Source: Alistipes sp.
Lineage (GTDB): Bacteria; Bacteroidota; Bacteroidia; Bacteroidales; Rikenellaceae
Direction: 5' to 3'
DNA length: 64,000 nt
Assembly: GCA_017381935.1 (NCBI GenBank)
Contig: JAFOBG010000049.1
Span: forward strand, 21,453 to 85,452
Part shown: in pieces, positions 7,955-54,168 of the stretch
Numbering within the stretch: the first letter of the stretch is position 1
How the letters are laid out: every line of letters begins with the position of its first letter
Notes under the pieces: generated by a model
Seen by the model: only the letters and a program-made list of their open reading frames with translations
Databases searched by the model: none
What the model was told of the DNA's origin: nothing
Translations under genes and position numbers: made by a program

Positions 7955-7955
7955 G

Positions 7956-11066: not shown

Positions 11067-11077
11067 TATAATAGATA

Positions 11078-11944
11078 ATGAAGAGACTTTTTGATATATC
11101 CAATCTTCGATGCTCCTACGACAAACACTATAAGGAGGGGGTATCAAAGGTTATTCTGGAGATAGATAAGTTAGTTATACCAAAAGGTAAGAAGGTGTTT
11201 ATCGTGGGTGAGTCGGGAATTGGTAAGAGTACCATTCTCGAAACCCTCGGTATGATGAACAACACCATTGTTACCAATGACAATACACGTTTCCACTTCT
11301 ACGAAGATGATAACACAATTGTAGATTTGGCAGCACTTTGGAAGTGTAGTGATAAGGAGCTATCGGAGTTTCGCCTAAAGCACTTCAGTTTTATCTTCCA
11401 GAGCACAAACCTTATGCGTAACTTTACAGCCTATGAGAATATAGCTTTGACACGTATGCTTCAACGCTACAGTCAGAGTTCATCATTTGAGAAGGCTAAT
11501 CAGGTTATGAAGGACCTCGGACTTGAGCATATAGACCAAACTCGTATGACTCAAGAGCTCTCAGGAGGTCAGCAACAGCGTTTGGCTTTTGCCCGTGCTA
11601 TTTTGCCTGACTTTACAGTTCTTTTTGGTGATGAGCCAACCGGAAACCTTGATAGCGACAATGCTGTTAAGGCAATGGAACTCCTCTCAAACAAGCTCTC
11701 ACAACTTGAGGGTAGTTCGGCAATCATCGTTTCGCACGATATGCATCTTGCAGTAACATTTGCCGACGTGATTATCAAGATTCGCAAAGAGGTGCGTAAA
11801 TCTAACTCTGTAAAGGATGAAGTAATCTATTACGGAGCGATTGATGATAGTTGCATCTTTACGCCTAATCAAAATGGAGAGTGGAGCAACGGCAGTGAGA
11901 GCTACTTGCCAGCAGATTTTGAGTTGTACTTAAAGAGATGGTAG
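11078..11944 (+). CDS. ABC transporter ATP-binding protein, MacB/LolD/FtsE-like
   Basis: Motifs present are Walker A GESGIGKST, Q-loop FIFQS, signature LSGGQQQR, Walker B VLFGDEPTGNLD and H-loop IIVSHD. The stop overlaps the next start (ATGGTAG). Confidence 0.9.
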   Translation: MKRLFDISNLRCSYDKHYKEGVSKVILEIDKLVIPKGKKVFIVGESGIGKSTILETLGMMNNTIVTNDNTRFHFYEDDNTIVDLAALWKCSDKELSEFRLKHFSFIFQSTNLMRNFTAYENIALTRMLQRYSQSSSFEKANQVMKDLGLEHIDQTRMTQELSGGQQQRLAFARAILPDFTVLFGDEPTGNLDSDNAVKAMELLSNKLSQLEGSSAIIVSHDMHLAVTFADVIIKIRKEVRKSNSVKDEVIYYGAIDDSCIFTPNQNGEWSNGSESYLPADFELYLKRW

Positions 11945-13524
11945 CAATGAGACTTAAAGATATTATATCAACCGACTATTTTAAACTCTTTGTCAAGCGC
12001 GAAGGAAAAGTAGTGCTTGGAAAGAACTACTCAAGCCTTTGGTTGCTATGTAGCGTCCTTACAACAACATTCTTGGCCATAGCATTCAGTAATGCAAGTC
12101 TTAACTACCTATCATACAAGATGAACGACCCGTTTATCAATTGGGTAGATATTAAGAATAACTTCGGAGAGAATGACTTTATAGGTTTTGAGCAGGCCCT
12201 ACGCGAAGAGCAGAACAAAGAGCGTTTCCACTTTAACGGTTACCAAACCGATAAATATTGGTACTCACTTTTTGGTACTGCGAATAACAATAGCCGTAAC
12301 CTTAAGTGTCGCTATTTCGCTGATATTCAGACACCTTTAGTACAGGCCATTATGGATAAAGACAATGTCGTATCAAAGGCTTGTATTGCAGCTGAGAATA
12401 TCAACAACCAATCATACGGTGTCATCATTACTCAAGATGCTCTTTGTAGTAAGTTGGGTTATGATATTGACAATATCCCGTCATATATCAACTACTTCAC
12501 ATATTGCAATCCTGATGCAAGTGAGTATGGTGTAGATATCTTAGGAGACGGCTTTGCCCTTGCCCCAATCCCTGTATTGGCTGTTGTAAAGCGTCTGCCA
12601 ACCAACATGGATATTATTAGTACCAAGTTCCTCTATCTTCAGAATCTGGGGTGGGCTCTTAATATGGACCGCATAGAGTACCACACATCTTTTATCTACT
12701 TCCTGCCTAACAAGGTAGATGTAGAGAAGTTTAAGACTGAGCTAGAAGGATTGACTGCAGAGAAGTGCACAACTTCATTCTTTACACTCTATGGACAGGA
12801 CCTACCAATGACTCGTATGATCCCATTCCGAGAGGGTACATTTATTCTCCTTCAGTTTGACTATCCTGATGAGGTCGATTTTGTAGCTACAAAAGAGATT
12901 AATCAGACTATCCTTGACAAATACAAGGAGGATGGTGTATATCGTATCTATGACTATGTTGAGAGCTTTACTACTGACGACCAGGACGACTATATCTCAG
13001 TACATTTTGGCAATCTGGATATGATTAGTAGTTTCCAAGAGTTTGCAAAAGAGAACTTCAAGATTGATATTGAGATGTCTCAAATCAATGCAAAGGAGAA
13101 CTTTAATGAGGTAAGCATTATGGCAAACATACTCTCATGGACTATGATTGTCTTTGCCATTGTATGTATTATTCTATTTATTATCAACTTGTTGCAGTCC
13201 TACTTCCAGAAGGTAAAGCGCAATTTGGGTACATTCAAGGCATTCGGAATCAGCAATATGGAGTTGATAAGTGTCTATGTACTGATTATGGTGGCAACTA
13301 TTTTGGTAGCTATCACTATCTCTCTTGGCGCATCCTATCTTATTGAGATTATACTGCCTCTTTTAGGCATTGTAAAGGATGCTTCATTTGGATACCTCTC
13401 TCTATGGAATGGAAAGACCTTAGTCTCTGTTCTTATCATCATAGCAGCCTCTGTTGCTACTGTATATATGGTAATGAGCAAACTTCTAAAGGCAACCCCT
13501 GGAGACCTAATTTATGACAGATAG
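11938..13524 (+). CDS. FtsX/MacB-type ABC permease with a large periplasmic domain
   Basis: One N-terminal TM helix (LWLLCSVLTTTFLAIAF) is followed by an extracytoplasmic region of about 330 aa. The C-terminal three-TM FtsX-like module contains …LGTFKAFGISNMELISVYVLIMVATILVAITISLG…. The 7-nt overlap with the ATPase gene indicates translational coupling. Confidence 0.8.
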   Translation: MVAMRLKDIISTDYFKLFVKREGKVVLGKNYSSLWLLCSVLTTTFLAIAFSNASLNYLSYKMNDPFINWVDIKNNFGENDFIGFEQALREEQNKERFHFNGYQTDKYWYSLFGTANNNSRNLKCRYFADIQTPLVQAIMDKDNVVSKACIAAENINNQSYGVIITQDALCSKLGYDIDNIPSYINYFTYCNPDASEYGVDILGDGFALAPIPVLAVVKRLPTNMDIISTKFLYLQNLGWALNMDRIEYHTSFIYFLPNKVDVEKFKTELEGLTAEKCTTSFFTLYGQDLPMTRMIPFREGTFILLQFDYPDEVDFVATKEINQTILDKYKEDGVYRIYDYVESFTTDDQDDYISVHFGNLDMISSFQEFAKENFKIDIEMSQINAKENFNEVSIMANILSWTMIVFAIVCIILFIINLLQSYFQKVKRNLGTFKAFGISNMELISVYVLIMVATILVAITISLGASYLIEIILPLLGIVKDASFGYLSLWNGKTLVSVLIIIAASVATVYMVMSKLLKATPGDLIYDR

Positions 13525-13542
13525 AAAAAAGGAGAATATAAT

Positions 13543-16500
13543 ATGAAAAAATTTCTATTAGCATTTTGCACCATTGCCCTTCTTGCCTCTTGCGACCAGG
13601 TGGCCCCAGAACAGAGTGTTCACCCAGGAACAGAGGGTATGGCTGTATCTATCAGAGAGGCAACAATCCCTCCAATGGGAAACCTAGGAGATAAGAGTGA
13701 GTATATACAATTCACTGTATCTTCAGAGGTTGCATGGAAGATAGAGAGAAATGGTGCTGATTGGCTTTTGTTTGATTTTAACGGCAAACCAAGTTCTACT
13801 CTCAAGGGCGCTGCCGGAACTACAAATGTAGCAATGTATGCCCCTGTAAATACAGAGTCTGAATCATACCGTACAGCAAAGGTTGATTTTATTTTTAGTG
13901 ATGCAAGTAAGAGCGTAGCCACTATAGATGTATATCAGGAGCGTCCTTATTTGAGAATTAAGGCTGCTGATCAGACCCTTGAAGAGCCTGAAAGCATACA
14001 CAACTTCCTCTTCCATTGGGACGAGAGCGAGGATCAAGTTACAGATGCTGAGCAGAGTATTACCATCTATTCTAATACTCCATGGAAGATTTCTCTTGGA
14101 GAGAATGCTCGTACATACCTCTGTCAAGAGGGTCTTGAGCCATTTGATGGCAAAGCAACTGTTAATGCAATTGGTCAGAACGGTATTCTTATCGGTCCAA
14201 CTGATAATCAATGGCTTGTTTGTTCTCAGATAGAGGGTGATACAACAGGTGATTTAAGAGCCGGCGATAATGGCGTGAATGTAAAGTTCAACCCACTACG
14301 ATACAATACAACTCGCAATGATCGTACACTTAACATTGTTGTTTCCGGTCAGAACAAATTGTGGCAAACAATGTACCTAAATTTCGTTCAGGAGAATTTG
14401 ATATTTGTTGCCACTTTGGATGGAGCAGATGTTGCAGACAAAGATGCACAGGATAATATTCCTACTGTTATCAAATATCCTGCATGTAACACCACAACCA
14501 TTGCTCAGCATCAATTTACAGTTGAGTCTGAGCTTGATTGGGTTCTTAATGACAATAGTTCGACATGGGTTGTAACAACTCCTAAGGAGGGATACGGCTC
14601 AGGTGTTGATGGTCAAGGCCTTGTAACTCCTGGTACTATCAACCTTATTGAAAATGATGCTAATCCGGGTTCAGAGGTGCGTGAGGAGATTCTCACCTTT
14701 ATAAGTCAGGCCGATGTTAACCCTAAACCAAGCCTATATATCAAGGTGGAGCAAGAGGGTTATATCTTTGAACTTAATCCATCGACTCTAAATATTAGCA
14801 ATAACGATTTGACTGAAAGAGAGATACAATTTATGTCATCAGGTCATTGGGAGGTAGATAAGGCCTCTGTTCCTGAGTGGATTACTGTATCAGGCGGAGA
14901 GGGTATTGGTCTTGAATATGGTGCACAGGGTGTAGAGCGTTTTAATATTAACGCAAACTGCCAGAACCTACTACTTACCGATCGCTCTCAGAATATCGTC
15001 GTGAAAAGTACTCAGCCAGGTAACAACATGGCTAAGAGTATCTCCGTAACTCAAGATAAGTATATTTTCGATGCTACATCGTTAGACTCCGACCTTCAGT
15101 TCGGAACTGACGAGAGTGTTAATGCACCTGCCACCCTCGATATTCACAGTTCAGGTGATTGGGAGATTAGTATCAAGTATCCAGATAGCTACAACCAAAA
15201 CTTGGATTGGTTGGAATGCGAGAAATATTCCGGAAACGGTAATGCTAAAATTACATATTGGGCAAAGAGCGTAAACGGAGATATCGACAATGACCGTATG
15301 GCGACTATCGTCGTTACAAGTAGCACCCACAAAAACGCAGGCGTTCCTATTGACGATATAGAAATCAATATCAAACAACGTAAGTTCACATTCAACATTA
15401 CAGCAAACTCCCCAATCTCATATTATGCAGTAGATAGCAGTTCAAACAATGTCGCAATTGACTGTTCTGTTGCATGGCAGGTTGATGCTTCAGAGAGTTG
15501 GGTAAAACTAAATAGAGTTTCTGGAACAAGTAACACCAAGTCTCTATCTGTAACTGTTGAGAACAACCTCTCACTCTCTCCTCGTCAGGCTACCGTTACT
15601 ATTAGCAATATAGATCCGGCCTATGGTGAGCATACAAAGAGCTTTACCATTGAGCAGAAGGGATTTGTATTCAATGTTAGCGGCACTACTGAATACAACA
15701 ACCTAAGCCCTATAAACGCTACAGGCAACTACGAGGTGCAAGTTACCTGCTCAGGAGCATGGAGTGTCAAGCCTGCTGAGGCATGGGTTACAGCCTCTCC
15801 AAGTAGCGGTAATGGAGGCAATCCGGAGGCTGCAAAGAGTGTACACTTTACTGTAGCAGACAACCCAAATCTCTCTACTCGTTCAACAAGCGTTACAATT
15901 AGCAGTAATCTCGACTCTCAATATTCTAAGAGTGTAACATTCTCTCAGAATGCATTTGAGTTTAACAACACTCCAAAGAGTTTCTCTTTTGATGCTATCA
16001 ACTCAAAGAGCGAAAAGATTGATATCGTATGTAGCGGTAATTGGGTACTTGATGGTTATGAGAGTTGGATGGGAGCTGACAAGACAAGCGGCTCTGGTAA
16101 CACTACAATCACTATCACTCCTACAACCAATACCAATAAGGGTACAGGTCGTATGAATAGAGTGCTTAAGGTTGTAAGTTCTCTCCACAAAAACATCGGT
16201 TGGTCTGATATGGCCTCTGTAACAAAGGTTATCAATATTAGCCAAAACGGTTTGCAGTTTGATGATACTCCTGTAACTGTTCCTCCATTCAAGGCCATCT
16301 CTCCAAGCAGCTATACTGCATCAATTGGTCTATGTGATGGTGGTTGGGAGATAAAGTCTGTACCTAGTTGGGTTACAGTAACTCCTACTTCAGGCACAAG
16401 CTACCAGAGTATCATGATTACTCCAAGCGAGAATACTAGTATGCAGATGCGTGAAGCAACTATTGAGGTAGTAAGTAAATTAAACTCTTCTCTTAAGAAG

Positions 16501-16863
16501 GTTATCTCTCTGTCTCAGGCTGCATTTGTATTCGACACAAAGGATGCATCTGTAGAGTTTGAAGCAACAGACACCGCTGCAAATGCAAAGAAGGTAACTG
16601 TAGATGCCTCTTCTGCAGGTTGGACTTTAGTTTGTACCCAGACATGGCTTACAGTATCACCTACTGTATCATTTGACGGTGCAAAGACTGAAATTACCAT
16701 TACCCCTACAGAAAATAAGGATACTAAGTCCCGTACTGCAACAATAACCATTACAAGTGATAAGAACTCATCACTTACAAAGACTATTACAGTAACTCAG
16801 AAGGCTGCAACACCTCCACCAACTGAGGATGATGACAAGAAACCTTCTACATCCTCTTTGTAA
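13543..16863 (+). CDS. Surface lipoprotein with about 10 tandem BACON-like repeats
   Basis: The lipobox is LLASC. A motif of about 90-100 aa repeats as W-x(5-9)-W(I/V/L)x(V/L)-x(2-4)-SG(S/N/T)G-…-V-x-(N/D)-…-R-x-A-x-(I/V)-x-(I/V)-x-S. Examples are AWSVKPAEAWVTASPSSGNGG…RSTSVTISS and GWEIKSVPSWVTVTPTSGTS…REATIEVVS. Confidence 0.75.
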   Translation: MKKFLLAFCTIALLASCDQVAPEQSVHPGTEGMAVSIREATIPPMGNLGDKSEYIQFTVSSEVAWKIERNGADWLLFDFNGKPSSTLKGAAGTTNVAMYAPVNTESESYRTAKVDFIFSDASKSVATIDVYQERPYLRIKAADQTLEEPESIHNFLFHWDESEDQVTDAEQSITIYSNTPWKISLGENARTYLCQEGLEPFDGKATVNAIGQNGILIGPTDNQWLVCSQIEGDTTGDLRAGDNGVNVKFNPLRYNTTRNDRTLNIVVSGQNKLWQTMYLNFVQENLIFVATLDGADVADKDAQDNIPTVIKYPACNTTTIAQHQFTVESELDWVLNDNSSTWVVTTPKEGYGSGVDGQGLVTPGTINLIENDANPGSEVREEILTFISQADVNPKPSLYIKVEQEGYIFELNPSTLNISNNDLTEREIQFMSSGHWEVDKASVPEWITVSGGEGIGLEYGAQGVERFNINANCQNLLLTDRSQNIVVKSTQPGNNMAKSISVTQDKYIFDATSLDSDLQFGTDESVNAPATLDIHSSGDWEISIKYPDSYNQNLDWLECEKYSGNGNAKITYWAKSVNGDIDNDRMATIVVTSSTHKNAGVPIDDIEINIKQRKFTFNITANSPISYYAVDSSSNNVAIDCSVAWQVDASESWVKLNRVSGTSNTKSLSVTVENNLSLSPRQATVTISNIDPAYGEHTKSFTIEQKGFVFNVSGTTEYNNLSPINATGNYEVQVTCSGAWSVKPAEAWVTASPSSGNGGNPEAAKSVHFTVADNPNLSTRSTSVTISSNLDSQYSKSVTFSQNAFEFNNTPKSFSFDAINSKSEKIDIVCSGNWVLDGYESWMGADKTSGSGNTTITITPTTNTNKGTGRMNRVLKVVSSLHKNIGWSDMASVTKVINISQNGLQFDDTPVTVPPFKAISPSSYTASIGLCDGGWEIKSVPSWVTVTPTSGTSYQSIMITPSENTSMQMREATIEVVSKLNSSLKKVISLSQAAFVFDTKDASVEFEATDTAANAKKVTVDASSAGWTLVCTQTWLTVSPTVSFDGAKTEITITPTENKDTKSRTATITITSDKNSSLTKTITVTQKAATPPPTEDDDKKPSTSSL

Positions 16864-43563: not shown

Positions 43564-43595
43564 AAAAAAGAGTCTGCCGAAAATTCGACAGACTC
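43564..43595 (-). terminator. Hairpin terminator for the 43620-54066 cluster, also placed to stop waaA
   Basis: The stem is gagtctg(c)cga / tcga cagactc. The + strand A6 tract 5' of the stem gives a T6 tract on the - strand. Confidence 0.55.
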
Positions 43596-43619: not shown

Positions 43620-46613
43620 CTAACGAACAGTCTTCTTAACCTGATAGAGGTTACCTGCAGCATCAGTCCAAGCTACAGCTACTGTAGCCTGCTCAGGAAC
43701 GTTCTCAATAGTACCGCTAACAGCAGTTGAACTCTTAACAGCCTCTGAGTGGAGTGGAAGTGCGTAAGTAAGATCGTCATCATCGTAGTAGAGCAAGTTA
43801 GGCACTGCGAGAACATAAATCTCAGTAGCACCTGCACCTGGAGTTACAGAGTATGTAAATACGCCACCCTCAAGAGTTGCCTCTACAGTTGGCTCTGAAG
43901 CGGTCCAAGCAGCCTCTGTAGATGCGATGTATGGAGCAGTGAAGATTGGCTTCTGAACAGCCTCATAGTAGTTACCTGCTGCATCACACCAAGCCACATA
44001 AACAACAGCCTTTACGTCGTATGTACGACCAGCCTTGTATGATGGAGCGAATGTAGCAGCCTCTGTGCCAGAAACACTACCATAGTACTGACCCTCCTTA
44101 AGCATAAGGTTGTCGATGATATCCTTTGCAGGTGAATCTGGAGCAACTGCGCTCTCTGAATCCCAAACAGCTACCCAGTACTTTGTAGTACCAGCAGCAG
44201 GGGTAACAGTAACTGTTACATCAAATGCACCGTAGTCAGAGTTCCAAGCAACTACAGACTCAACAGTAGGAACCATTGCAGCATAAGCCTCGTTTGTAGA
44301 GCGGATGATTGGGTACTCTGGAAGTGATGGAGTGAAGTAGTGGAATGTAGCGTGTGAAGGGTTACCCTCAGCGTCAATAGCTACGATACCAAATGCATAC
44401 TCGTTGTTAGTTGTAAGGTCCTCAAGGTTAATCATACCGTCAACAACATCAGCAGCAGCGATAGTCTTAACATTCCAGTTAGAGTCAAGAGCAAGCTGTG
44501 TCTCAGTTGTTGCCTCGTCCTTCCAAGAGTAACCAGTTGTATCAACAGCGATGTAGCGGTAAGATACCGGAGTACCACCCTCGGTTGAAACCTTAATAGA
44601 TGCAGTGGTTACATCTACCTTTGAAGCAGTTGCATCAATATTAACCTTCATTGAGTTGTAAGCAAGAACGTTGGTCTTGAACTCCTCCTTGTAGAGCTTG
44701 CTGTACTTACCCTCTGTATCAACTGCAAATGCAAGAACAGTTGCAGCATCGCCTGGGTTAAGAGATGAAATGTAAGCAGTAGACTCATTGCCGATAGCCA
44801 TCATATTGTAAGCAGAGTTGTATTCAATAACATACTGGAGCAGCTCCTCGTCAGTCTTGTATGCTGCAAGGTCGTCAGCAGTTGCAAATACAGAGTAGAT
44901 CATTGTTGTGTTCTCTGAACCCTTGATAGCAACCTCGATGTTAGAGTATGTAGTCTCAACAGCCTCGAAAGTAAGGGTTGCAGTACCACCAGCCTCAATG
45001 TTTGGAGTGGTGTATGTGAAGTACTTCAGATCAGTTGCCAGATAGTCAGCATCAGCCTTACCCTCAACAAGTGGAAGGATATATACTACATAAGTGGTGT
45101 TAGGATAAACTGCAGGGTAGTATGCCTCGCCGAAGCCAAGGATATCGCCCTTGTAGTTGAGCTCCTTAAGCTCTGCGCCGAACATACCCCAACCCATCTG
45201 CCAGTTGCCAAATGAGTTCTCAATCTGCATCTTTGCCTCATCTGCAGTCGCAGCAGCAACTACACCTACGATGTAGCCAGCATAACCACCACCAACAGCA
45301 GTAATCTCTACAGAGTTGAATGTAACAGCTGTAGACTCAACATTGAGGAATGCAGGGGTGTAAACAGTGTAAACAACCTCGTCAGCAGAGTAAACGTGAT
45401 CCCAAGCATCGCTACCTGCAAGTGCCCAAACTACATAAGAAGTACCTGTTGGAATCTCAACATAAGAAGCAGGGTCGTAAACCTGAGCAATAAGCTGGTT
45501 GTAGAGCTCTTTGAGAGATACAGTTACCTGTGTCTCAGTGAACTCTGGAGCCATGAGTGCGTAGTCGTTCTTTGCAGCTGCAATAGCCTCTGCGCTGAAA
45601 TCCTCGTAAGTAGCAATACCGTAAGCAACACCACTCCAACGGAGACCTGTGTTGTTGTAGATAGTAGCATCCTCGCCTACAACCTCGATAAGAACAGATG
45701 CTGTAGATGCAGAAACAAGGAGCTTACCTACCATACACTTACCATCGCCACCAGCTGCGTGAATCTTTACAAAACCCTCGAGCTCAGCCTCACCGGCGTC
45801 AATCTTCTCCTGTGCAGGAGCAGTTACAGTCAAAGTCTTACCAGAGATTGTAGCCTTCCAACCCTCAGGTTTAGCGATAACTGTAAGGTCATCAATGTTC
45901 TCAGCCTTGAGAGCAACCTCAGCACTCTCACCTGGAGTAACGAAGGTCTTACCAGCCTGAACACCGAAATCGATAGCCGCTGCCTTAGGAACAGAGATTA
46001 CCTCACCTGATGCAAGGTAGAAATCAACAGAAGTCTCGCCATCAACTACATTGATAAAGATGCAAGTTGACTCCTCTGTCTCCTCCTCTGCCTTAACAAC
46101 AAGAACCCAGCTCTTACCTCCATCAACAGAGCACTCAACATCGCCTGTTGTTGGGTTAACGCGGAACTCTGGAGTAGCATTGTGAGCAACAGGAATCTTA
46201 TTACCAGCACCGTCAACGATAGCTACAGCCTGACCGTCAACAATCTGTGCCCAATAATAAACATCACCCTCCTTAACAATAGTTACACAGCCATTGTTAA
46301 GTTCTGGAGCCTGTGGCTCTGGCTGATACTCAGGATAGACAACAATCTTCTCACCTGAAGTGAGCAGAATATCCCAAGAACCATCTGTGTTTTTAGTTGC
46401 AGAAGCAACTACTGTCTTTGAGTCAATGAGAGTCTTGAGAGCCTCAACCTCGCTGTCGAGTTTCTGCTCAAGCTTTGAGATCTTCTCAAAAAGATCTGCA
46501 ATCTCCTGACGAATTGCAGTGTCATCATACTCTACTGTACATGATACAAAAAGCATCGATGCAACAACCAAAGTACTCAACACGCTTTTGAACATTGTGT
46601 AAACGTTCTTCAT
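43620..46613 (-). CDS. Very large surface lipoprotein (997 aa) with an N-terminal coiled coil and beta-rich repeats
   Basis: The lipobox is MLFVSC. A heptad-like segment (IRQEIADLFEKISKLEQKLDSEVEALKTLI) follows, then a long body rich in A, V, T, E, G and Y. No catalytic motif is recognised. Confidence 0.7.
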   Translation of the reverse strand: MKNVYTMFKSVLSTLVVASMLFVSCTVEYDDTAIRQEIADLFEKISKLEQKLDSEVEALKTLIDSKTVVASATKNTDGSWDILLTSGEKIVVYPEYQPEPQAPELNNGCVTIVKEGDVYYWAQIVDGQAVAIVDGAGNKIPVAHNATPEFRVNPTTGDVECSVDGGKSWVLVVKAEEETEESTCIFINVVDGETSVDFYLASGEVISVPKAAAIDFGVQAGKTFVTPGESAEVALKAENIDDLTVIAKPEGWKATISGKTLTVTAPAQEKIDAGEAELEGFVKIHAAGGDGKCMVGKLLVSASTASVLIEVVGEDATIYNNTGLRWSGVAYGIATYEDFSAEAIAAAKNDYALMAPEFTETQVTVSLKELYNQLIAQVYDPASYVEIPTGTSYVVWALAGSDAWDHVYSADEVVYTVYTPAFLNVESTAVTFNSVEITAVGGGYAGYIVGVVAAATADEAKMQIENSFGNWQMGWGMFGAELKELNYKGDILGFGEAYYPAVYPNTTYVVYILPLVEGKADADYLATDLKYFTYTTPNIEAGGTATLTFEAVETTYSNIEVAIKGSENTTMIYSVFATADDLAAYKTDEELLQYVIEYNSAYNMMAIGNESTAYISSLNPGDAATVLAFAVDTEGKYSKLYKEEFKTNVLAYNSMKVNIDATASKVDVTTASIKVSTEGGTPVSYRYIAVDTTGYSWKDEATTETQLALDSNWNVKTIAAADVVDGMINLEDLTTNNEYAFGIVAIDAEGNPSHATFHYFTPSLPEYPIIRSTNEAYAAMVPTVESVVAWNSDYGAFDVTVTVTPAAGTTKYWVAVWDSESAVAPDSPAKDIIDNLMLKEGQYYGSVSGTEAATFAPSYKAGRTYDVKAVVYVAWCDAAGNYYEAVQKPIFTAPYIASTEAAWTASEPTVEATLEGGVFTYSVTPGAGATEIYVLAVPNLLYYDDDDLTYALPLHSEAVKSSTAVSGTIENVPEQATVAVAWTDAAGNLYQVKKTVR

Positions 46614-46723
46614 AGAGTTTAAACTTTTATTGGTGTGTGTAAATCAGGTACACACGCCTAAAAAATATATGCCGACTCCTGATTTGTCGGACTGTTAAAT
46701 ATAAATAGGTATAAGCCTTCTTT

Positions 46724-49072
46724 TTACTTACACTCCCAAGCTCTAAGAACTTTACGAGGCTGTGGCACGCAAAGGGTTGAGAGAGCAGGCGCTGATGAAG
46801 TAGCTGCTGACGCAGGATTATAGTTAGGATAGTAATCTTTAAGAGTCTTAAAGGCTGTTCCATCCCAAATTGAGTAAGCAACCTCTCCACGAACATCATT
46901 CTGGCTATAAGGAAGACAAAGTGCTACAATAACTCTATCTGCAGGCTGCTCAAGTGTTGTTACTGTATTATCAGTCTGCAAGCCCTGGGCATTACAGTAT
47001 GTTCTCCACTTCTTAAGCATCTCTTCTGCTGTATAGTAGTTCTCGTTACCCAGATACTTAATACCAAGTGCATCGTTATCCAACTCCTTATCACCTGCAA
47101 GATATAGCATACGTGCAGTTTGATCATTTGCAGTAAAGGTAAAAGTTACAGTTCCTGTATTAGAATTATGGGTACCTGTAATGCTTGCATGAACATCATC
47201 GCCTGCAGCAACACCTGGCAGAGTTATCTCAGCAAACTTAAGTTCGCCAACAACACCATTCCAATCCTCGCACATATAAGCATACTTAACCTTTGTACCA
47301 GGAGTAAAGCCAGGAAGAGTAAAGGTATCAAAACCAGACTTATCTGCAGCCCAATTATTTGAAACAAGACCCTCTGCATCTCCAGGCAGACCAAAGCCTA
47401 AGAACGAGAGGAATGTCTCACGACTTGACTCTGCTGAAGGCTGTGTACTACCATCAAGAATAGGCTCGATATACTGGAAACGGATACCTGCATGTCTCTT
47501 TATATCATACTTAACATTGATAGTAACAGCAGTTCTACCACTTGCAGCAAGGGTAAGCTGGCAATCAGATTGGCAAGCTGATGGATTATCTACAACAAGG
47601 CTCTTAGTCTTAAATGGTGCTGTAAACTTAACATCAGACAGCTCCTGAACTCGGTTACGGCAGACATAAGCAACAACATACTCGGTATCTGGATTAAGAT
47701 AATGCACCTCCTGTGCAGTATAACCTGAACCAAATGTATTGCTATTCTCGTCATAATGATACTTCTCATTCTTAAAGCCATAACCCTCATTATTAAGAGT
47801 GATAGCTAATGATTTACGCTCAGCCTCAGTACCATTCTTATACGCCTCAGCCTGCTCTGAGGTCATAAACTTATAGAACATATATGGGGTATTGCCCTCA
47901 GCTGTAATCTCAATCCAACCATAAGATGCACCCATCATACTCTCAACAATCTTTATAGTTCCCTCGGCAGGTGCAAAAGTAGGCTTTTCAAGCAATGTAA
48001 AGACTTTGTAGTCCATAGTTGCTGCCGGAGTATAGTTCTCATCTAATGCAATAGCAGTTGCCATAATAGGCACATCTGACGATGCATTCTGACCGAAATC
48101 AATATAGAAGTGGCAGCTGTCAGGGTCTGATGCAGAGATAGGCTCACCAATTACAGAGTGGCGCATAAAGTCGATATAGAGTTTCTCGCCATAAACATCG
48201 ATATATGGTTTAAGATCGGACTCATTTGAGCACCACTGGTAGAGATACTTACAGTCGCTGTTTGGCTCATAGGTAATCTCCATTGCTGTATAGTTAACCT
48301 TCACATTTACATTCACTCTTGGGCTACCTACAAGTGGTGTTGAAGGGGTCTTAACATAACATAGAGACATATCGCCATCATCTGTACCATCCTTATCATA
48401 GCAAGCAACGATAATAATGATATACTCAGAGTCTGGCACAACACGGACCTGAGAGTACTCAGTATTCATCCAATCGAACTCCTTAGCTGCATAATCCTCA
48501 TGTGTTGTAGGGTCAAATGTATAGGCGCCTGAACCTGTTGAGTTAAAGATAAGGTCGCGAATATATGTATCAACCATGCGAGCATCCAAAGAGCTTCTGC
48601 CCTCTGACTTCATTCGCTCATAGAGCGAGTTATAGAGGTGTGCAAGCGGATATACGTCAAGACGATATGACTGTACATACTCTCCCGGACGAGCTGTAAA
48701 GATAAAGTTTCTATTCTCAATCTTTGTAACATCAATGCTAACACCATCCTTAGATGCTATAACCTTATCTTGATATGCTACAATCGGGGTTGGCACATTC
48801 GGATAGATATTTACAGGTGTCTGAGTCTCACCACCCTGGCCTGGATTATCCTCACCGCCTTGACCTGGATTATCCTCACCGCCTTGGCCTGGGTTATCCT
48901 CACCGCCCTGACCTGGGTCATCAGGATTTCCCGGTTTCTCTGGATTGTCATTACCTCCACCAGGCTGCTCCTGCTCATTCCCATTATTAACCGGAGCATC
49001 ATCTCCACATGATACTGTTACGCTAACTGTAAGTAGCGCACAAAGCATCATTACAAAAAATTTCTTAATCAT
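46724..49072 (-). CDS. Large surface lipoprotein (782 aa) with an N-terminal PGQGGEDN repeat linker
   Basis: The lipobox is VTVSC. The linker is NDNPEKPGNPDDPGQGGEDNPGQGGEDNPGQGGEDNPGQGGETQ. The rest is unassigned. Confidence 0.7.
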   Translation of the reverse strand: MIKKFFVMMLCALLTVSVTVSCGDDAPVNNGNEQEQPGGGNDNPEKPGNPDDPGQGGEDNPGQGGEDNPGQGGEDNPGQGGETQTPVNIYPNVPTPIVAYQDKVIASKDGVSIDVTKIENRNFIFTARPGEYVQSYRLDVYPLAHLYNSLYERMKSEGRSSLDARMVDTYIRDLIFNSTGSGAYTFDPTTHEDYAAKEFDWMNTEYSQVRVVPDSEYIIIIVACYDKDGTDDGDMSLCYVKTPSTPLVGSPRVNVNVKVNYTAMEITYEPNSDCKYLYQWCSNESDLKPYIDVYGEKLYIDFMRHSVIGEPISASDPDSCHFYIDFGQNASSDVPIMATAIALDENYTPAATMDYKVFTLLEKPTFAPAEGTIKIVESMMGASYGWIEITAEGNTPYMFYKFMTSEQAEAYKNGTEAERKSLAITLNNEGYGFKNEKYHYDENSNTFGSGYTAQEVHYLNPDTEYVVAYVCRNRVQELSDVKFTAPFKTKSLVVDNPSACQSDCQLTLAASGRTAVTINVKYDIKRHAGIRFQYIEPILDGSTQPSAESSRETFLSFLGFGLPGDAEGLVSNNWAADKSGFDTFTLPGFTPGTKVKYAYMCEDWNGVVGELKFAEITLPGVAAGDDVHASITGTHNSNTGTVTFTFTANDQTARMLYLAGDKELDNDALGIKYLGNENYYTAEEMLKKWRTYCNAQGLQTDNTVTTLEQPADRVIVALCLPYSQNDVRGEVAYSIWDGTAFKTLKDYYPNYNPASAATSSAPALSTLCVPQPRKVLRAWECK
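48827..48916 (-). repeat. 24-nt in-frame tandem repeat, about 3.75 copies
   Basis: The + strand reads cctggattatcctcaccgccttga / cctggattatcctcaccgccttgg / cctgggttatcctcaccgccctga / cctgggtcatc…. The copies are near-identical. Confidence 0.85.
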
Positions 49073-49077
49073 AGTAT

Positions 49078-51924
49078 CTATTTTTTATAATCGTAATCTA
49101 CACTTCCATTTATCGGGCACACAGCGGCATTGATAACAGAGCCCTTACTGTCAAACACTAAAGCACATAGGCTACACTTATCAGCCTTCCAGCTACCATC
49201 AAGAGTAAAGTTATAGCTCTTTTGGCTCTTCTCTCCCGCCTTAATTTCACCAATGCGGTCGCCCTCATACATAGAGCTGACCATTGCTCTTACAACGTGG
49301 TTATGAGTATAGTTTTCTTTATATATTCCGCTATCATTCTGTCTTGCTACAATACCATCCTCAAGGATATAGAGCGCAAGGCGATAGTTATCACTCTTAG
49401 CCGCATAAAGCTCAACATCTACACTACTATCTGTACTTGTCATCTTTACTCCGCAAGTTGCAGGGTAGTCGTTAAACGAACGCTCTATCATAGCCTGAAT
49501 CTCAGTCTTTTCACTTGTTCCCTCTCGCATATCGACAACAAATCCAGGAAAACCTGCAAGGGCAAATTTGTTAAAAATCTCGTTTGTCAACGGTATGCCC
49601 ATAGGGTCATTTGATGTAGAGTCATGGAAGGCAAGGATATGAACTGTATCATGGCTCCAATAGTCCTCAATAAGGTACTTGAGGAAGGTATATCCACCAG
49701 GACACATTGCACACCAGGTACCTGTAAACTCAAAGACAGACACGTGGCGGTTAAATGCCACATCAGCAGTCTCGCCACCACTATCTCCACTATTATCCTC
49801 CAAAGCATAGCCTACACTTTGGCCTAACTTACACTCGTTGGTATTATTACAGTTGTAAGTTACGCCACCATCAGTAGTTGATAGAGCAGAGACCACAACA
49901 CGCATATTCTCAGCATTCCAACTACTCTTTAGCGTAGTTACAATAGGTGTTGCAAGAGCTGTATCATTGCCTGCTACAAGCGTTGCTCCACCATTAAATC
50001 TATCGCCATAGATATTTCCAGACAACACCTCTCGAACTACATTATTATGAGTATAGTCTCCGGAAACGCCATACTGCTCTGCCACAATACCATCCTCAAC
50101 AAGCATTACAAGATAGCGATAGCTTGACTCTGTATTGGACATAATTCTCGGAACTATTGTAACTTCTCGTGTTGCCGCCTGGTAAGTAGTCGTAATTGCC
50201 ACACCGCACGTTGGAGGGTAGTTTGCCACACGTTTTGCCATCTCGCTCTCAATAACTGAGCGATTAGATGTCATCTGCTCGCCCTCACGAAGGTCGAGGT
50301 AGAACATCGGAAGTCCATTACCCTTTAATTTTTTATAATAGGTATCACCTATAGCGACCTTCATCGGGTCTGCTACATTATAGTCAAGATGGAACGACAC
50401 TGGCACAAGGCGATTAGGGTGTGCAATTTGTATAGACTTAATAACATTGCTCAATGTAGGGCAATTCTGGCAACCAATAGATGTAAATTGCATACCAAGC
50501 AGTTTATGGCGGAAATCCTGCTTCTCTCCGACCTCTGCTGAGGTTGCAGTTACCGTAATCTCATTCTCAGAATATATCTCGCCACCTTTATAATAACGAG
50601 CCTTAAAGGTATAGGACCCAGGAACGGTAGTTGTAAAGCTGTTTGCTCCAGCAGTAAACTCTACATTTTCGCCATTAAAGGTACGAATGAGTGTCAAAGT
50701 AGGGTCTTTGCTCACATCCTCTGCACCATATTTGGTAGTAAAGGTAACGCAATCTACGCCATCAGCCTTGATAAATGTCTTATCAGCCGAGAGTATCAAT
50801 TTCTGTTCTGGAATACCATCGTAATACTCAACGGCCATGTAGTCAGCACTACCACCAATCTTACACTGGTTAGCATTATCAACAAAGACCTTTCCGTTGC
50901 GCTTTGTAAGTGCAAAAACCACCACACGCATATTTGCAGCATCGGTGTACTTCAAATTCTCAACCGTAAAACTCTTTGTGCGCTCTACATTAGGGGCTGT
51001 TGTAATCTTGGCATCTGTCATACCAAGAAAGTTATCCGAAAAAGCAACCACAATATCGTTATACAGGTCATCAACGGCATATCCTCCAGTATAATACTGA
51101 TTATCAAGCAATACTGCATAGCCAAACTCATACTCTCCACCTGTAGCCGATGTCAGTGCAGCCTCAATTGTAAGGGTTGTGCCCACTAACTTCGTGCTCT
51201 CGATTTTCACGCCACAAGTTGCAGGGTACTCCTTAATATGCTTCTCAAGCAAATCGCCAATCTCCTTTGGTGTGCGGGCTTTGCCGTTGAGGTACTGAAG
51301 GTCATATACGCAACTCGGATAACCCTGACCACCAAATCGACTAAGCATGGTTGTAGCCAAGTCGTTACCTTCGTGCAAGAGATCCCACGGGTCGTTGTTA
51401 TGCACTGCAAGCACAATCATATTTCTCTTCCACAGCTCATCTACATTCTCTAAACCGGCAGTCATTGTTGGGCAGTTTGAGCACCATGCTCCCGTAAGGT
51501 CATAAATCATAACCTTTTGACCATAAGCCTCATACTTTTCACGATTTACTGCCTTTACCTGCACAGAGTTTGCCGACTGCTGACCCTTATATGTGGCTAC
51601 AAAGGAGTAGTCGCCATTCTTAACTGCTGTAAATGTTGTAGAATAACGTTCAAGACGGTTCCCACTCTTTTCATGGACTATATAGACCTTTGAGAGCGTT
51701 GCCTCGTCATTCATCAACTCCTGTCCATCAAAAGTTAGCGAAAAGGTAACAAAATCCTCTCCATCTGCCTCTATTGTCGTCTTATCGACACTCAGCACAA
51801 GCTTATTATCTACCTGCGGAGTATCCGGAGTCTGATTGTCCACAACAAGGTCATTAACATCTCCATGGCAACCCACAGTAAGCATTGCCACGATAAGTGT
51901 TATATATTGTACTAACCCCTTCAT
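49078..51924 (-). CDS. Lipoprotein (948 aa) with three thioredoxin-like CxxC modules (Omp28-related-like) interleaved with Ig-like domains
   Basis: The lipobox is MLTVGC. Three paralogous modules carry GAWCSNCP, SIGCQNCP and GTWCAMCP. Each is followed by YP(A/P)TCGV and YTHN(N/H)VVR-type motifs. Two modules are preceded by L(V/I)LS(V/A)DKT.I.ADG.D.VTF Ig-like segments. Confidence 0.7.
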   Translation of the reverse strand: MKGLVQYITLIVAMLTVGCHGDVNDLVVDNQTPDTPQVDNKLVLSVDKTTIEADGEDFVTFSLTFDGQELMNDEATLSKVYIVHEKSGNRLERYSTTFTAVKNGDYSFVATYKGQQSANSVQVKAVNREKYEAYGQKVMIYDLTGAWCSNCPTMTAGLENVDELWKRNMIVLAVHNNDPWDLLHEGNDLATTMLSRFGGQGYPSCVYDLQYLNGKARTPKEIGDLLEKHIKEYPATCGVKIESTKLVGTTLTIEAALTSATGGEYEFGYAVLLDNQYYTGGYAVDDLYNDIVVAFSDNFLGMTDAKITTAPNVERTKSFTVENLKYTDAANMRVVVFALTKRNGKVFVDNANQCKIGGSADYMAVEYYDGIPEQKLILSADKTFIKADGVDCVTFTTKYGAEDVSKDPTLTLIRTFNGENVEFTAGANSFTTTVPGSYTFKARYYKGGEIYSENEITVTATSAEVGEKQDFRHKLLGMQFTSIGCQNCPTLSNVIKSIQIAHPNRLVPVSFHLDYNVADPMKVAIGDTYYKKLKGNGLPMFYLDLREGEQMTSNRSVIESEMAKRVANYPPTCGVAITTTYQAATREVTIVPRIMSNTESSYRYLVMLVEDGIVAEQYGVSGDYTHNNVVREVLSGNIYGDRFNGGATLVAGNDTALATPIVTTLKSSWNAENMRVVVSALSTTDGGVTYNCNNTNECKLGQSVGYALEDNSGDSGGETADVAFNRHVSVFEFTGTWCAMCPGGYTFLKYLIEDYWSHDTVHILAFHDSTSNDPMGIPLTNEIFNKFALAGFPGFVVDMREGTSEKTEIQAMIERSFNDYPATCGVKMTSTDSSVDVELYAAKSDNYRLALYILEDGIVARQNDSGIYKENYTHNHVVRAMVSSMYEGDRIGEIKAGEKSQKSYNFTLDGSWKADKCSLCALVFDSKGSVINAAVCPINGSVDYDYKK

Positions 51925-51927
51925 TAT

Positions 51928-53553
51928 TTAGAAACTTGTAGTTATCATCAAATTTGCACCCGTATAAGCCGGTATATTTCGACACACACCACCTGAGCAG
52001 ACCACACCGGCACGATTTCGGCCATAGCTAAGTTGAATACGTGTACGAGACTTAGTATAGCTTACTCCTGCGTTGTAATAATGTATCTTAGTCTGACCAT
52101 GATTGTACATATCGCTTGCAAAGATGCTCCAATTTGGTGCGAAGTTAACCTCTGCAAGTGCAGCCATCCAATCCTTTTTATCATGCTTTGAGTAGAGATA
52201 CTGCAACTCAAGACGTGTAGAGATGGTCGGAGTCCATTTATAGAGCATATCGGCAACAAAGATGTTACTCTTCCATGTATAGTTATTCACACCATGAGAG
52301 TCGTTATACTCTTGGAACGAGTAGAGGAAGTTTAATTTAAACTTTCTTGTAAACTGCTTCTCCAATGTAAAGTTTACACTCTGCCAAAGCAGATTATTTG
52401 CCTTTGCCGAGCGATCCTTAACAAGCGAATAGTAGGTCGAATAGTTTAAGCCCAACTTCATACCACGCTTGCCACCCAACTTGGTACGACGAGCCACATT
52501 GTAATAGATATCTACCTGACCACCTATCTCTCCAGGACCGCAATAGCTACCCAACATTGTACTTGGTTGCACAATATACGGATTGAGGTTTGTCAACAAA
52601 TATGAGTATTGGGCTGTTAGAGCCGGGATATAGTTAAGAGCATTTGCTGTCGAGGTGTTACGATATACAATAGGCATATCCATATACTCCAATCGGCGTG
52701 CTGTAACATTTACACCTAAGCCATGGCCACTATAGCCAACCTCAATCAGCTGTGCGTTACCATTCTTGATAAGGTCGATACGAGGGTCGTTAACTCCATC
52801 ATAACCGCCATTAGGATAGTGTCTTTCTCCTGCATCAATATACTCAGCCTTGACAATAAAGCCCTTATGCTCAAAGTTTACTCGGCCGGAGAAGCCTGTT
52901 GATGTAGGCTTGCCACCCTCCTCCTTCAAATCGGCAGATATCACCTCATAGCGATTAAGCACAGAGCCCTCAATGGCAAAAAGAGTCTTTGTCCAACCTG
53001 CAAGATTAGAGATAGCAAATGAAATATCACCTCCTCGAACCTGTGTATCTGAAAACTCCATACCCAGACGTGGCATACCCCAGATAGCCTTTACGCCTAA
53101 GATATCTTTGTAGTTGTATGTAAATCGAGCACCCATAAGTGCGCTATTCATACCTAAAGTACGGTCCTCATAAGAACGAAACAATAGTCCGCTACCGAAC
53201 TGTTCATAATATGTTCCCGCAGTAATCGAGAAGCTATCATCAACCCATGACGCATAATAATTTGTTAATCCAACCTTAGACAAATTAGTTGGATATCCCT
53301 GAAGGACAGGAAGATAGCCCTCCATCTGTACTCCTGCAGAGAACTTTCCGCGATAATAGTCAAGTTTCAAATAGTTGTTAGAGCCAAAGTTATCCTCAGG
53401 AACTATAGCCGCAGTTTTGTTATCCTCAACATAATATATTGAGTTGGTTTCAAAACTACCGGTCAAACGGCCCGTTTTATCCTCACCTCTCTCTCTTGCC
53501 GAAACAACACCTACAAGCGATAGACAAGTGAATAAAATTGCAAGTCTCTTCAT
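51928..53553 (-). CDS. Putative outer-membrane beta-barrel (porin-like) protein
   Basis: The signal peptide is MKRLAILFTCLSLVGVVSA. Alternating beta-strand patterns rich in Y and G run throughout, and the C-terminal residue is Phe (…NLMITTSF). Confidence 0.6.
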   Translation of the reverse strand: MKRLAILFTCLSLVGVVSARERGEDKTGRLTGSFETNSIYYVEDNKTAAIVPEDNFGSNNYLKLDYYRGKFSAGVQMEGYLPVLQGYPTNLSKVGLTNYYASWVDDSFSITAGTYYEQFGSGLLFRSYEDRTLGMNSALMGARFTYNYKDILGVKAIWGMPRLGMEFSDTQVRGGDISFAISNLAGWTKTLFAIEGSVLNRYEVISADLKEEGGKPTSTGFSGRVNFEHKGFIVKAEYIDAGERHYPNGGYDGVNDPRIDLIKNGNAQLIEVGYSGHGLGVNVTARRLEYMDMPIVYRNTSTANALNYIPALTAQYSYLLTNLNPYIVQPSTMLGSYCGPGEIGGQVDIYYNVARRTKLGGKRGMKLGLNYSTYYSLVKDRSAKANNLLWQSVNFTLEKQFTRKFKLNFLYSFQEYNDSHGVNNYTWKSNIFVADMLYKWTPTISTRLELQYLYSKHDKKDWMAALAEVNFAPNWSIFASDMYNHGQTKIHYYNAGVSYTKSRTRIQLSYGRNRAGVVCSGGVCRNIPAYTGANLMITTSF

Positions 53554-53574
53554 CTTTACAAAAAAATAGAATAA

Positions 53575-54066
53575 CTATTTGAGCGATTTGATTTTATCTA
53601 TCAACTCCTGCTCTGCACCTGGAGTATAACCGGTATGAGAATAGACAATCTTTCCGTCCTTATCTACAACAAAAACCTGTGGAGTGTAAGAGACATTCAT
53701 TGCACGCATAAACTCCTGATTTTTATCAAAAAGTACTGTAAAGTCGTTCCAACCATGGCCCTCTACCCACGCTCTTGCCTGAGCAGAGAAGCGACTATCA
53801 TCTGTTGAAACAGCTACAACACGGAAGGAGGCCTCGTCTAACCAATCAGGCATAGCATCGTTAATTGCATCCAACTCTCGAATACATGGCTTGCATGTTA
53901 CAGCCCAAAAAGAGATAATGATAGGTGTCTTACCATCAACCAATGAGGATGTATTGACAAGTTCGCCTTTTCTGTTCTCAAGCTTTACAGACGGTAACTG
54001 TGCCTGTGCTGAAAATGCAACAACAACAGCAACAACCATCAAAAAGATAGTCTTAATTTTTTGCAT
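53575..54066 (-). CDS. TlpA/ResA-like periplasmic thiol:disulfide oxidoreductase
   Basis: The start is trimmed to the ATG at 54066 (MQKIKTIFLMVVAVVVAFSAQA). The active site is FWAVTCKPC. The pattern TPQVFVVDKDGKIVYSH is typical of the family. Confidence 0.85.
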   Translation of the reverse strand: MQKIKTIFLMVVAVVVAFSAQAQLPSVKLENRKGELVNTSSLVDGKTPIIISFWAVTCKPCIRELDAINDAMPDWLDEASFRVVAVSTDDSRFSAQARAWVEGHGWNDFTVLFDKNQEFMRAMNVSYTPQVFVVDKDGKIVYSHTGYTPGAEQELIDKIKSLK

Positions 54067-54160: not shown

Positions 54161-54168
54161 CAAAGGTA
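54161..54168 (-). promoter_or_regulatory. -7 box TAccTTTG on the - strand, upstream of the TlpA-led cluster
   Basis: The + strand reads caaaggta, about 95 nt upstream of the ATG at 54066. Confidence 0.3.

Follow-up and report, generated by a model that had tools for sequence, protein, structure and literature searches.

A TlpA-like reductase, a DUF6029 barrel and Omp28-family lipoproteins as a candidate outer-membrane thiol-redox module of Bacteroidota

The known clients of the reductases TlpA, ResA and CcmG are proteins such as apocytochrome c, Sco and CoxB, and we know of no mechanism by which a Gram-negative cell brings thiol-reducing power further out than its periplasm. Bacteroidota nevertheless have thioredoxin-like proteins on their surface, HBP35 being one example, whose recharging has found no explanation so far. 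Recombinant HBP35 of Porphyromonas gingivalis is reported to reduce insulin faster than Escherichia coli thioredoxin, a C48S/C51S mutant being inactive, and hbp35 to complement an E. coli dsbA mutant; the same paper describes HBP35 as a haemin-binding protein displayed on the cell surface and an hbp35 mutant as growing poorly at limiting haemin (PMC2907840). Omp28 of the same species is given as a surface adhesin/receptor recognised by patient sera in PMC7290125, which cites Slakeski 2002. Here we analyse a cluster of five genes in 64,000 nucleotides (nt) of Alistipes sp. DNA (contig JAFOBG010000049.1, positions 21,453 to 85,452; this whole stretch is called the window below), which encode a TlpA/ResA-like reductase, an outer-membrane (OM) beta-barrel of family DUF6029, an Omp28-family lipoprotein of 948 amino acids (aa) and two giant lipoproteins, p782 and p997. 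Our tentative reading, to which we give a probability of roughly 0.45, is that the cluster encodes an OM thiol-redox module and is an expanded copy of a three-component module of the Bacteroidota envelope.

Sixty-one diverse DUF6029 representatives were aligned and one genome per species was scanned, yielding 80 loci in Bacteroidales, Flavobacteriales, Sphingobacteriales, Chitinophagales and Cytophagales, whose open reading frames (ORFs) were searched with the five window proteins. A TlpA homologue was the immediately upstream gene on the same strand in 69 of the 79 loci with a called barrel, and an Omp28 homologue was adjacent in 66 of the 79. In 35 loci it came straight after the barrel gene, and in 37 it was found up to four genes upstream, as a rule in divergent orientation. 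Homologues of p782 and p997 were recovered in only 12 and 9 loci, respectively, all of them from Bacteroidales. Since TlpA, DUF6029 and Omp28 are widespread and the giant lipoproteins occur in few Bacteroidales loci, the conserved unit consists of three genes, and TlpA-DUF6029-Omp28 is a phylum-wide module to which the giant lipoproteins are a Bacteroidales add-on. The original prediction had treated all five genes as one unit; the genes are real and the synteny is conserved well beyond Bacteroidales, but the conserved core is limited to TlpA, DUF6029 and Omp28. The five-gene order recurs in Bacteroides ovatus, B. xylanisolvens and other Bacteroidales, even where the identity of the last two proteins is only 25 to 38%, and homologues at the p997 position keep the same place in the cluster at 25 to 28% identity.

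All three core components each carry a conserved cysteine pair. CxPC was retained in all TlpA homologues adjoining DUF6029, and CxxC was present in 98 of 98 neighbouring Omp28 homologues, as WCxxCP in 50 and as GCxxCP in 20. A Cx4C pair, absent from the earlier description of the barrel, was found in 83 of 84 barrel homologues, the lone exception looking truncated. With synteny, CxxC conservation and family searches all in its favour, and with SusC/SusD-like genes near the cluster in only ~10 of the 80 loci, a thiol-redox reading of the cluster is thus well founded, which supports in part the interpretation first put forward for these genes.

The product of the first gene has a Sec signal peptide, read from the sequence (…AFSAQAQ), and its sole cysteines are C58 and C61 of the C58-K-P-C61 motif. 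As expected of the TlpA/ResA-like CKPC oxidoreductase that had been called, it scored above the Pfam cut-offs for Redoxin (75.5 bits against 26.6; E = 5e-21) and AhpC-TSA (70.8 bits against 26; E = 1e-19), and its best NCBIfam match was ResA. The NCBIfam scores, however, were under the cut-offs for ResA (60 bits against 170), TlpA (39 against 230) and DsbE (38 against 123), thus indicating that the protein is an orthologue of none of the three and a family-level relative only. It is presumably recharged by an inner-membrane DsbD/CcdA; a DsbD gene was adjacent in three loci (L027, L030 and L042) and lay less than 10 kb from the B. ovatus cluster. At one Rikenellaceae locus (L029, 2606-5824), the gene directly upstream of TlpA encodes a 1072-aa protein with leucine-rich repeats, Peptidase_M64 (IgA peptidase) and a weak Redoxin match.

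The 948-aa protein has a lipobox (…MLTVGC19) with C-H-G-D-V-N-D after it. It matched Pfam Omp28 (PF11551) over three stretches (231.4 bits; cut-off, 34.9) and NCBIfam lipoprot_Omp28 (NF033782; 183.7 bits; cut-off, 150), and its only sequence matches in the PDB were HBP35 (5y1a) and Omp28 (2r2c) of P. gingivalis, which shows that the original assignment to the Omp28 family, with its thioredoxin-like CxxC, was correct. The three modules of the protein align with one another and share invariant CxxCP, YPxTCGV and a C-terminal cysteine, each module having (W/G)CxxCP plus two more invariant cysteines. The pairs C148/151, C485/488 and C738/741 are all of the thioredoxin type (W/G)CxxCP, and in an alignment of module 3 with HBP35, the nearest relative to have been characterised, C738/C741 pair with the catalytic C48/C51. 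Several genomes, among them those of B. ovatus, B. xylanisolvens and Tidjanibacter, have three separate genes for lipoproteins of ~365 aa, each with its own lipobox, which map in order to residues 18-363, 371-707 and 723-946 of the 948-aa protein, and some genomes show a 1+2 arrangement. Since the three separate paralogues map in order, the 948-aa protein is a three-paralogue fusion, in which module 1 alone has kept its lipid anchor. The three thioredoxin-like CxxC modules noted at the outset are therefore real, but the CxxC pairs number four, and the protein is a fusion of three genes. The fourth pair, C917/920 (K-C-S-L-C-A), is lineage-specific and lies in the C-terminal domain of module 3, with none in modules 1 and 2; some relatives in which the fusion is complete or partial have a counterpart (KCSICA in L008, QCTFCA in L009). 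The NCBIfam model "Omp28-related selenoprotein" matched module 2 around its CxxC, and, going by the name of that model, some Omp28 relatives carry selenocysteine. By analogy with HBP35 and P. gingivalis Omp28, the 948-aa protein would be exposed at the surface and active as an oxidoreductase. Paraprevotella protein 00502 ("Omp28-related") was set aside as a functional guide because of its different architecture, its authors having modelled it as WD40 plus Ig-like plus type IX sorting domain (PMC9477747).

The second protein aligned over residues 1-541 with positions 1-538 of the DUF6029 profile (PF19494; 584.8 bits, E = 2e-175); it has a signal peptide and a C-terminal phenylalanine. Its AlphaFold2 (AF2) model (predicted local distance difference test, pLDDT, 92.2; predicted template-modelling score, pTM, 0.87) shows 24 long strands beginning at residue 29, right after the signal peptide, with short periplasmic turns and two long conserved loops (residues 116-138 and 290-340). 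The model contains no plug, N-terminal jellyroll or periplasmic domain, the entire 541 aa being barrel and loops, and the earlier label "porin-like" does not hold for a protein that models as a 24-strand barrel. The cysteine pair, C519-S-G-G-V-C524, brackets the GG turn of the last hairpin; C519, G521, G522 and C524 were invariant in the alignment of 61 diverse sequences, and by standard barrel topology the pair would lie at the extracellular end of the barrel. The top Foldseek matches were the FimD/PapC ushers (template-modelling score, TM-score, normalised to target, ≤0.56), then MtrB, then LptD, and all fold matches were OM barrels; since barrel-to-barrel matches are partly generic, we treated them as a lead only. 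The analogy that FimD/PapC, MtrB and LptD may offer is with large barrels holding a partner protein or plug in the lumen. A weak Pfam LptD match (residues 380-513, E = 8e-4) was under the cut-off. A study of OPX proteins (PMC9603273) records an HHpred likeness of Wzi-barrel-only homologues to DUF6029, and no other published comment on the family was found in the searchable literature; identity of DUF6029 with a Wzi-like polysaccharide porin was supported neither by the neighbours nor by the fold ranking. Two DUF6029 barrels, both with Cx4C, were seen in one cluster in some cases (L022, 2067-16155; L024; Cryptobacteroides): in L022 and L024 the first barrel stands between TlpA and two DUF4988 lipoproteins, and Omp28 genes and a p782 homologue come after the second.

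In p782, lipid Cys22 is followed by G-D-D, and the linker is disordered and acidic, containing the PGQGGEDN repeat that had been predicted, which is a 24-nt tandem repeat in 3.8 copies. No Pfam, NCBIfam or PDB sequence match was obtained for p782, whose family comprises 177 clusters, all unnamed. The AF2 model (pLDDT 84.6, >90 across most of residues 81-754) shows, past the linker, a chain of FN3/Ig-like beta-sandwich domains with helical inserts and no catalytic fold, and Foldseek returned multi-FN3/Ig chains only, at low TM-score; some homologues have BACON or Big_1 domains. Beyond the lipid cysteine, C224 alone is invariant in the family, C238 being present in 48 of 64 sequences. With this single invariant non-lipid cysteine, the giant lipoproteins make weak candidates for disulfide-rich clients, and the alternative also offered by the original prediction, a surface layer needing disulfide management, has little in its favour. 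Thirty-five of the 64 p782 homologues end in a conserved tail, …(L/I)D(Y/M)xK(L/F)(S/G)(S/A)HP(K/H)A(T/S)G(R/K), which is missing from the window p782 and its closest relatives, ending in …RAWECK. In two lineages far apart, B. ovatus (L005) and L089, a gene for an S41 C-terminal processing peptidase comes after the cluster; together with the conserved tail, this suggests a possible processing of the tail in the p782 family.

In p997, lipid Cys25 is followed by T-V-E-Y-D-D, and the N-terminal coiled coil that had been noticed corresponds to DUF4988 (PF16378; residues 34-209, 8e-14); the remainder belonged to no family in Pfam, NCBIfam and PDB sequence searches. The p997 family comprises 107 clusters, again all unnamed. 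Residues 11-277 matched positions 4-277 (of 840) of NF058554, the BT3328-family hyaluronan endo-lyase model, at 74 bits against a cut-off of 1100, so that p997 is not a member, the shared part being the DUF4988-type N-terminal region. A glycan or enzyme function of the two giant lipoproteins was rejected, Pfam, NCBIfam and PDB sequence searches having yielded nothing beyond DUF4988 and the p782 model only generic FN3/Ig chains; neither protein fell into a known glycan-binding or enzyme family. Paralogy of p782 and p997 was likewise unsupported (BLASTP E = 0.13; profile-profile probability, 25%). The p997 gene is the most variable of the cluster, its product being 94.2% identical to that of GCA_045606845.1, while the other four genes reach 99.2 to 100%. 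Many of the differences in p997 concentrate at ~44100-45500 in two public runs, and the GC content is 0.464 at 44001-46000 and ~0.42 elsewhere.

Two further arrangements of large lipoproteins were observed in the survey. In L088 (13249-23126), Omp28 and large lipoproteins alternate in pairs past the canonical cluster (376 aa then 807 aa, the latter with a weak BACON match; 370 aa then 783 aa), followed by a SusC-like transporter, and from this locus each Omp28 may be paired functionally with one large lipoprotein. A further lipoprotein family, of ~880-1100 aa, lies beside DUF6029/Omp28 genes in 9 of the 80 loci (L015, L016, L018, L019, L020, L026, L030, L031 and L034); the three members scanned had no Pfam match, and the family is unrelated in sequence to p782 and p997.

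A recognisable lipobox was present in 89 of 104 Omp28 homologues and in all p782 and p997 homologues, and in all three groups the lipid cysteine is mostly followed by 2 to 4 acidic residues. This acidic composition resembles the export signal of Bacteroidota lipoproteins, K-(D/E)2 or a motif akin to it that also carries negative charge (PMC5080379), with a loose fit for the 948-aa protein of the window. Identity to other Bacteroidales was 63 to 71% for TlpA, 58 to 65% for the barrel, 38 to 42% for Omp28, 30 to 40% for p782 and 27 to 34% for p997, a gradient that is expected if the lipoproteins are exposed. Both this gradient and the strain variability of p997 fit exposed, diversifying surface proteins, and, as far as their sequences go, the lipoproteins would be displayed at the cell surface.

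On the favoured reading, the TlpA/ResA-type periplasmic reductase would service the CxxC lipoproteins, holding their CxxC sites, and possibly the cysteine pair of the barrel too, in the reduced state. The barrel and the lipoproteins would form one OM complex, in which the barrel anchors or houses the lipoproteins, these being held by it or passing through it, and the outcome would be a thiol-disulfide oxidoreductase activity displayed at the cell surface. Presumably co-expressed, fast-evolving and non-enzymatic, p782 and p997 would probably serve as a surface scaffold, as binding or shielding partners or as clients of the redox modules. We infer the physical complex of barrel and lipoproteins, the direction of electron flow and the substrate, and delivery of reducing power to the surface would follow the same proposal.

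Several points weigh against this reading. That the barrel binds Omp28 or TlpA is itself inferred; in the model, the long loops 116-138 and 290-340 might close the pore without a partner, and the Cx4C pair could be a mere structural staple of the hairpin. Since the acidic residues after the lipid cysteine are not the exact export consensus, the Omp28 modules could be turned towards the periplasm. As HBP35 is active in insulin reduction and also in dsbA complementation, the modules may work either as a reductase or as an oxidase/isomerase. Some DUF6029 paralogues also adjoin large lipoproteins but have neither TlpA nor Omp28 in the vicinity (L025, L021), and the primary role of the barrel may therefore be lipoprotein handling rather than redox. 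Finally, the RNA support for co-transcription is very thin, the data being limited to fragments in two low-coverage runs labelled "RNA?"; a single 170-nt contig from one such run bridges the 110-nt gap between the fourth and fifth genes, which is weak evidence of read-through.

The last but one of these points leads to the main rival, which we regard as somewhat unlikely, namely, that DUF6029 is a dedicated export or anchoring platform, a translocon or dock, for the co-encoded lipoproteins, comparable to an usher, Slam or LptD-LptE. TlpA would then act in transit only, keeping the lipoprotein cysteines reduced as ResA and CcmG do for apocytochromes, and, once outside, the CxxC sites would work without continuous electrons, for example, as oxidase/isomerase or ligand-binding sites. 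The leading fold matches, being protein-translocating ushers (FimD/PapC) and LptD, are in line with such a role, as are the plugless barrel, the DUF6029 paralogues directly upstream of large lipoproteins without Omp28 (L022, L024 and L025), the ~880-1100-aa family in its nine loci, the alternating pairs of L088 and the complementation of dsbA by hbp35 (PMC2907840). However, Flavobacteriia and other orders have just TlpA, the barrel and one Omp28, and a translocon for one small lipoprotein seems costly, the more so as the phylum already has a general export-signal route (PMC5080379). Export alone also leaves the near-universal Cx4C and the strict adjacency of TlpA unexplained, and the barrel has no periplasmic chaperone-like or TPR domain of the kind found in Slam.

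A stronger version of the thiol-redox reading, which we consider unlikely, would make the cluster a thiol counterpart of MtrCAB or DsbD, with reducing power passing from cytoplasmic thioredoxin through DsbD and TlpA, across the OM, to the surface CxxC lipoproteins. Thiol-disulfide exchange would take place within or along the 24-strand barrel, where the Cx4C pair might act as a relay, and the result would be a rechargeable extracellular disulfide reductase for which the giant lipoproteins of gut species would present or shield substrates.

Capture of a nutrient is improbable. The Omp28/HBP35-like modules would in this case act at the surface on an extracellular nutrient such as haem, a metal, cystine or peptides with disulfide bonds, which they would bind or reduce. 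Uptake would be through the barrel, TlpA would complete the reduction in the periplasm and the giant lipoproteins would be accessory binders as in Sus-like or BtuG/BtuH systems. The haemin binding of HBP35 and the poor growth of the hbp35 mutant at limiting haemin (PMC2907840) agree with this, and so do the SusC/SusD-like genes, which precede the cluster where they occur, the Omp28-like lipoproteins that come after a large GH9-like protein (L045) or after a large lipoprotein of the ~880-1100-aa family (L015, L016 and L018), and the BACON or Big_1 domains of some p782 homologues. Yet the barrel has neither plug nor TonB box, so there would be no active uptake, and the permeability barrier would be lost through an open channel of 24 strands. 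Transporters are missing from the surroundings of most loci, a search of the window returned no SusC, SusD or DsbD homologue, and the module occurs in aerobes and anaerobes alike and in housekeeping contexts, Flavobacteriia among them.

More improbable still is redox maintenance facing the periplasm, in which Omp28, turned inward, and TlpA would reduce or isomerise disulfides of the barrel Cx4C or of other OM proteins, with the giant lipoproteins as passengers. To our knowledge, many Bacteroidota lack a classical DsbA/DsbC system, and assembly of LptD, a structural match of the barrel, requires disulfide rearrangement; C-H-G-D-V-N-D in the 948-aa protein is, moreover, weak against the published export consensus. 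Against it stand the surface display of HBP35 (PMC2907840), the description of P. gingivalis Omp28 as a surface adhesin/receptor recognised by patient sera (PMC7290125) and the much faster evolution of Omp28 and the giant lipoproteins compared with TlpA and the barrel. The giant lipoproteins remain linked to the cluster at 25 to 30% identity, indicating that they are not passengers.

An ordinary glycan system, that is, a locus like a polysaccharide utilization locus (PUL) or DUF6029 as a Wzi-like polysaccharide export/assembly porin, is highly improbable and is largely refuted by the synteny data: it can draw on the published HHpred likeness (PMC9603273), an AlgE fold match at rank 23, SusC/SusD near a minority of loci, a GH9-like gene upstream in L045 and LicD and GT2 genes 7 to 9 kb from the cluster in the window, whereas the constant neighbours are TlpA and Omp28, no carbohydrate-active enzyme (CAZyme), OPX/Wza, Wzx/Wzy or sensor-regulator is consistently linked, neither giant lipoprotein contains a lyase or hydrolase domain, the BT3328-family match of p997 is confined to the N terminus, Wzi is absent from the top 50 Foldseek matches of the barrel, and the marks of a PUL are missing, with no SusC/SusD in the window and no CAZyme family in the five proteins.

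The layout of the cluster (Table 1) is as first described, five co-directional genes separated by 21, 3, 5 and 110 nt being borne out by the ORF list and by public assemblies of the same species, in which the same five genes are called. The first ORF could be extended to a TTG at 54204, but translation from the ATG at 54066 yields a signal peptide of normal form, and this start agrees with the public calls. The proposed upstream -7 box, TACCTTTG, is present in the 192-nt intergenic region before the first gene; since TAnnTTTG occurs 74 times in the window where 50 occurrences would be expected, the box is weak evidence of a promoter only. A sigma-70 promoter scan, whose model is unsuited to Bacteroidota, gave 24 sites against 23.5 expected. 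The hairpin terminator downstream proved real and strong, with an 11-bp stem containing 6 GC pairs and the top score of the region in the terminator scan, and the gene beyond it is convergent. In the 110-nt gap, two small hairpins, read directly from the sequence, fall short of the criteria of the scan; they may cause partial termination or mark a site of processing. Elsewhere in the window, a run of plus-strand genes unrelated to the cluster, including several family-less ORFs, could be signalling- or secretion-related.

Table 1. Positions of the cluster, its elements and other genes in the window
Feature	Position (nt)	Strand	Remarks
-7 box-like TACCTTTG	54161-54168	-	Fits Bacteroidota consensus TAnnTTTG; ~95 nt 5' of first ATG
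Five-gene cluster	43620-54066	-	
TlpA/ResA-like oxidoreductase, 163 aa	53575-54066	-	Pfam Redoxin, AhpC-TSA
C58-K-P-C61	53884-53895	-	
DUF6029 OM beta-barrel, 541 aa	51928-53553	-	PF19494, AF2 model
C519-S-G-G-V-C524	51982-51999	-	
Omp28/HBP35-family triple-module lipoprotein, 948 aa	49078-51924	-	Pfam Omp28 x3, NCBIfam lipoprot_Omp28
Module 1 of 948-aa protein	50830-51924	-	CxxC C148/151 (51472-51483)
Module 2 of 948-aa protein	49789-50829	-	CxxC C485/488 (50461-50472)
Module 3 of 948-aa protein	49081-49788	-	CxxC C738/741 (49702-49713)
C917/920 of 948-aa protein	49165-49176	-	
Lipoprotein p782, 782 aa	46724-49072	-	No family; AF2 model
PGQGGEDN repeat of p782	48827-48916	-	
Gap between fourth and fifth genes, 110 nt	46614-46723	-	Two small hairpins, one then short T-run
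Lipoprotein p997, 997 aa	43620-46613	-	DUF4988 (PF16378) at N terminus
Intrinsic terminator, GAGTCTGTCGAATTTTCGGCAGACTC then TTTTTT	43570-43595	-	25 nt past last stop codon
Gene run unrelated to the cluster	1418-16863	+	
FHA plus trypsin-like protein	1418-2863	+	
TssR-like VWA protein	8610-11066	+	
FtsX-like permease	11938-13524	+	
1106-aa protein	13543-16863	+	Four BACON repeats

All domain families involved are already catalogued, and nothing that we found in the searchable literature describes the TlpA-DUF6029-Omp28 association, the cysteine pair of the barrel or either family of giant lipoproteins. Across much of the phylum the reductase is encoded together with the plugless barrel and the CxxC lipoproteins, all three having a near-universal cysteine pair, and how surface thiols are recharged can thus be tested directly in tractable Bacteroides and Flavobacterium. 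If a relay is at work, it would be a new class of OM machine, categorically new if transfer across the OM is demonstrated, and it would matter for the way in which Bacteroidota of the gut and mouth deal with haem, oxidative stress and host proteins rich in disulfides (mucins, IgA and proteases). If the barrel is only a lipoprotein platform, it would inform the open problem of surface lipoprotein assembly in Bacteroidota and would assign a role to DUF6029, Omp28 and the two unnamed giant lipoprotein families.

Compared with described systems, the cluster shares with Sus-like systems and PULs an operon that combines an OM barrel with several lipoproteins whose lipid cysteine is followed by acidic residues, and DUF4988 is also N-terminal in surface lipoproteins such as those of the BT3328 lyase family; it differs in that its barrel is not a TonB-dependent transporter, SusD and CAZymes are lacking and Flavobacteriia keep the module in housekeeping contexts. 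HBP35 (PG0616) and Omp28 of P. gingivalis belong to the same family as each of the three modules, with the CxxC aligned, but HBP35 has a C-terminal sorting domain and is exported by type IX secretion, whereas the window protein is a lipoprotein and a three-module fusion; the searchable literature yielded no link of HBP35 or Omp28 of P. gingivalis to a TlpA gene or a DUF6029 barrel. LptD-LptE and the FimD/PapC ushers are likewise built on large barrels, of 24 to 26 strands, with the lumen filled by a partner or plug, and LptD, like the barrel described here, has conserved cysteines. In contrast to these, the DUF6029 barrel has no jellyroll, plug or periplasmic domain, and its neighbours are redox proteins rather than LPS (lipopolysaccharide)-transport or pilus genes.

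In plan, the cluster is like MtrCAB of Shewanella, where the genes for a redox protein of the periplasm, a large barrel without a plug and a surface lipoprotein with redox activity likewise lie together, and MtrB was the rank 7 fold match of the barrel (E = 1.3e-8, with a modest TM-score of 0.37). MtrCAB, however, uses multihaem cytochromes where the cluster has cysteine pairs, and MtrB has 26 strands against the 24 modelled here; none of the CxxC motifs listed for these proteins is followed by histidine, so that there is no CxxCH haem-binding motif. The relation is one of analogy, not homology. With the pathways that lead from DsbD/CcdA to TlpA, ResA or CcmG, the cluster has in common a secreted thioredoxin-fold protein of the Redoxin/AhpC-TSA type with CxPC, and the same logic of a dedicated reductase encoded beside a specific client. 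The known clients in those pathways are periplasmic or inner-membrane proteins, while the partners here are an OM barrel and CxxC OM lipoproteins. We class the locus with the extracytoplasmic thiol-disulfide relays.

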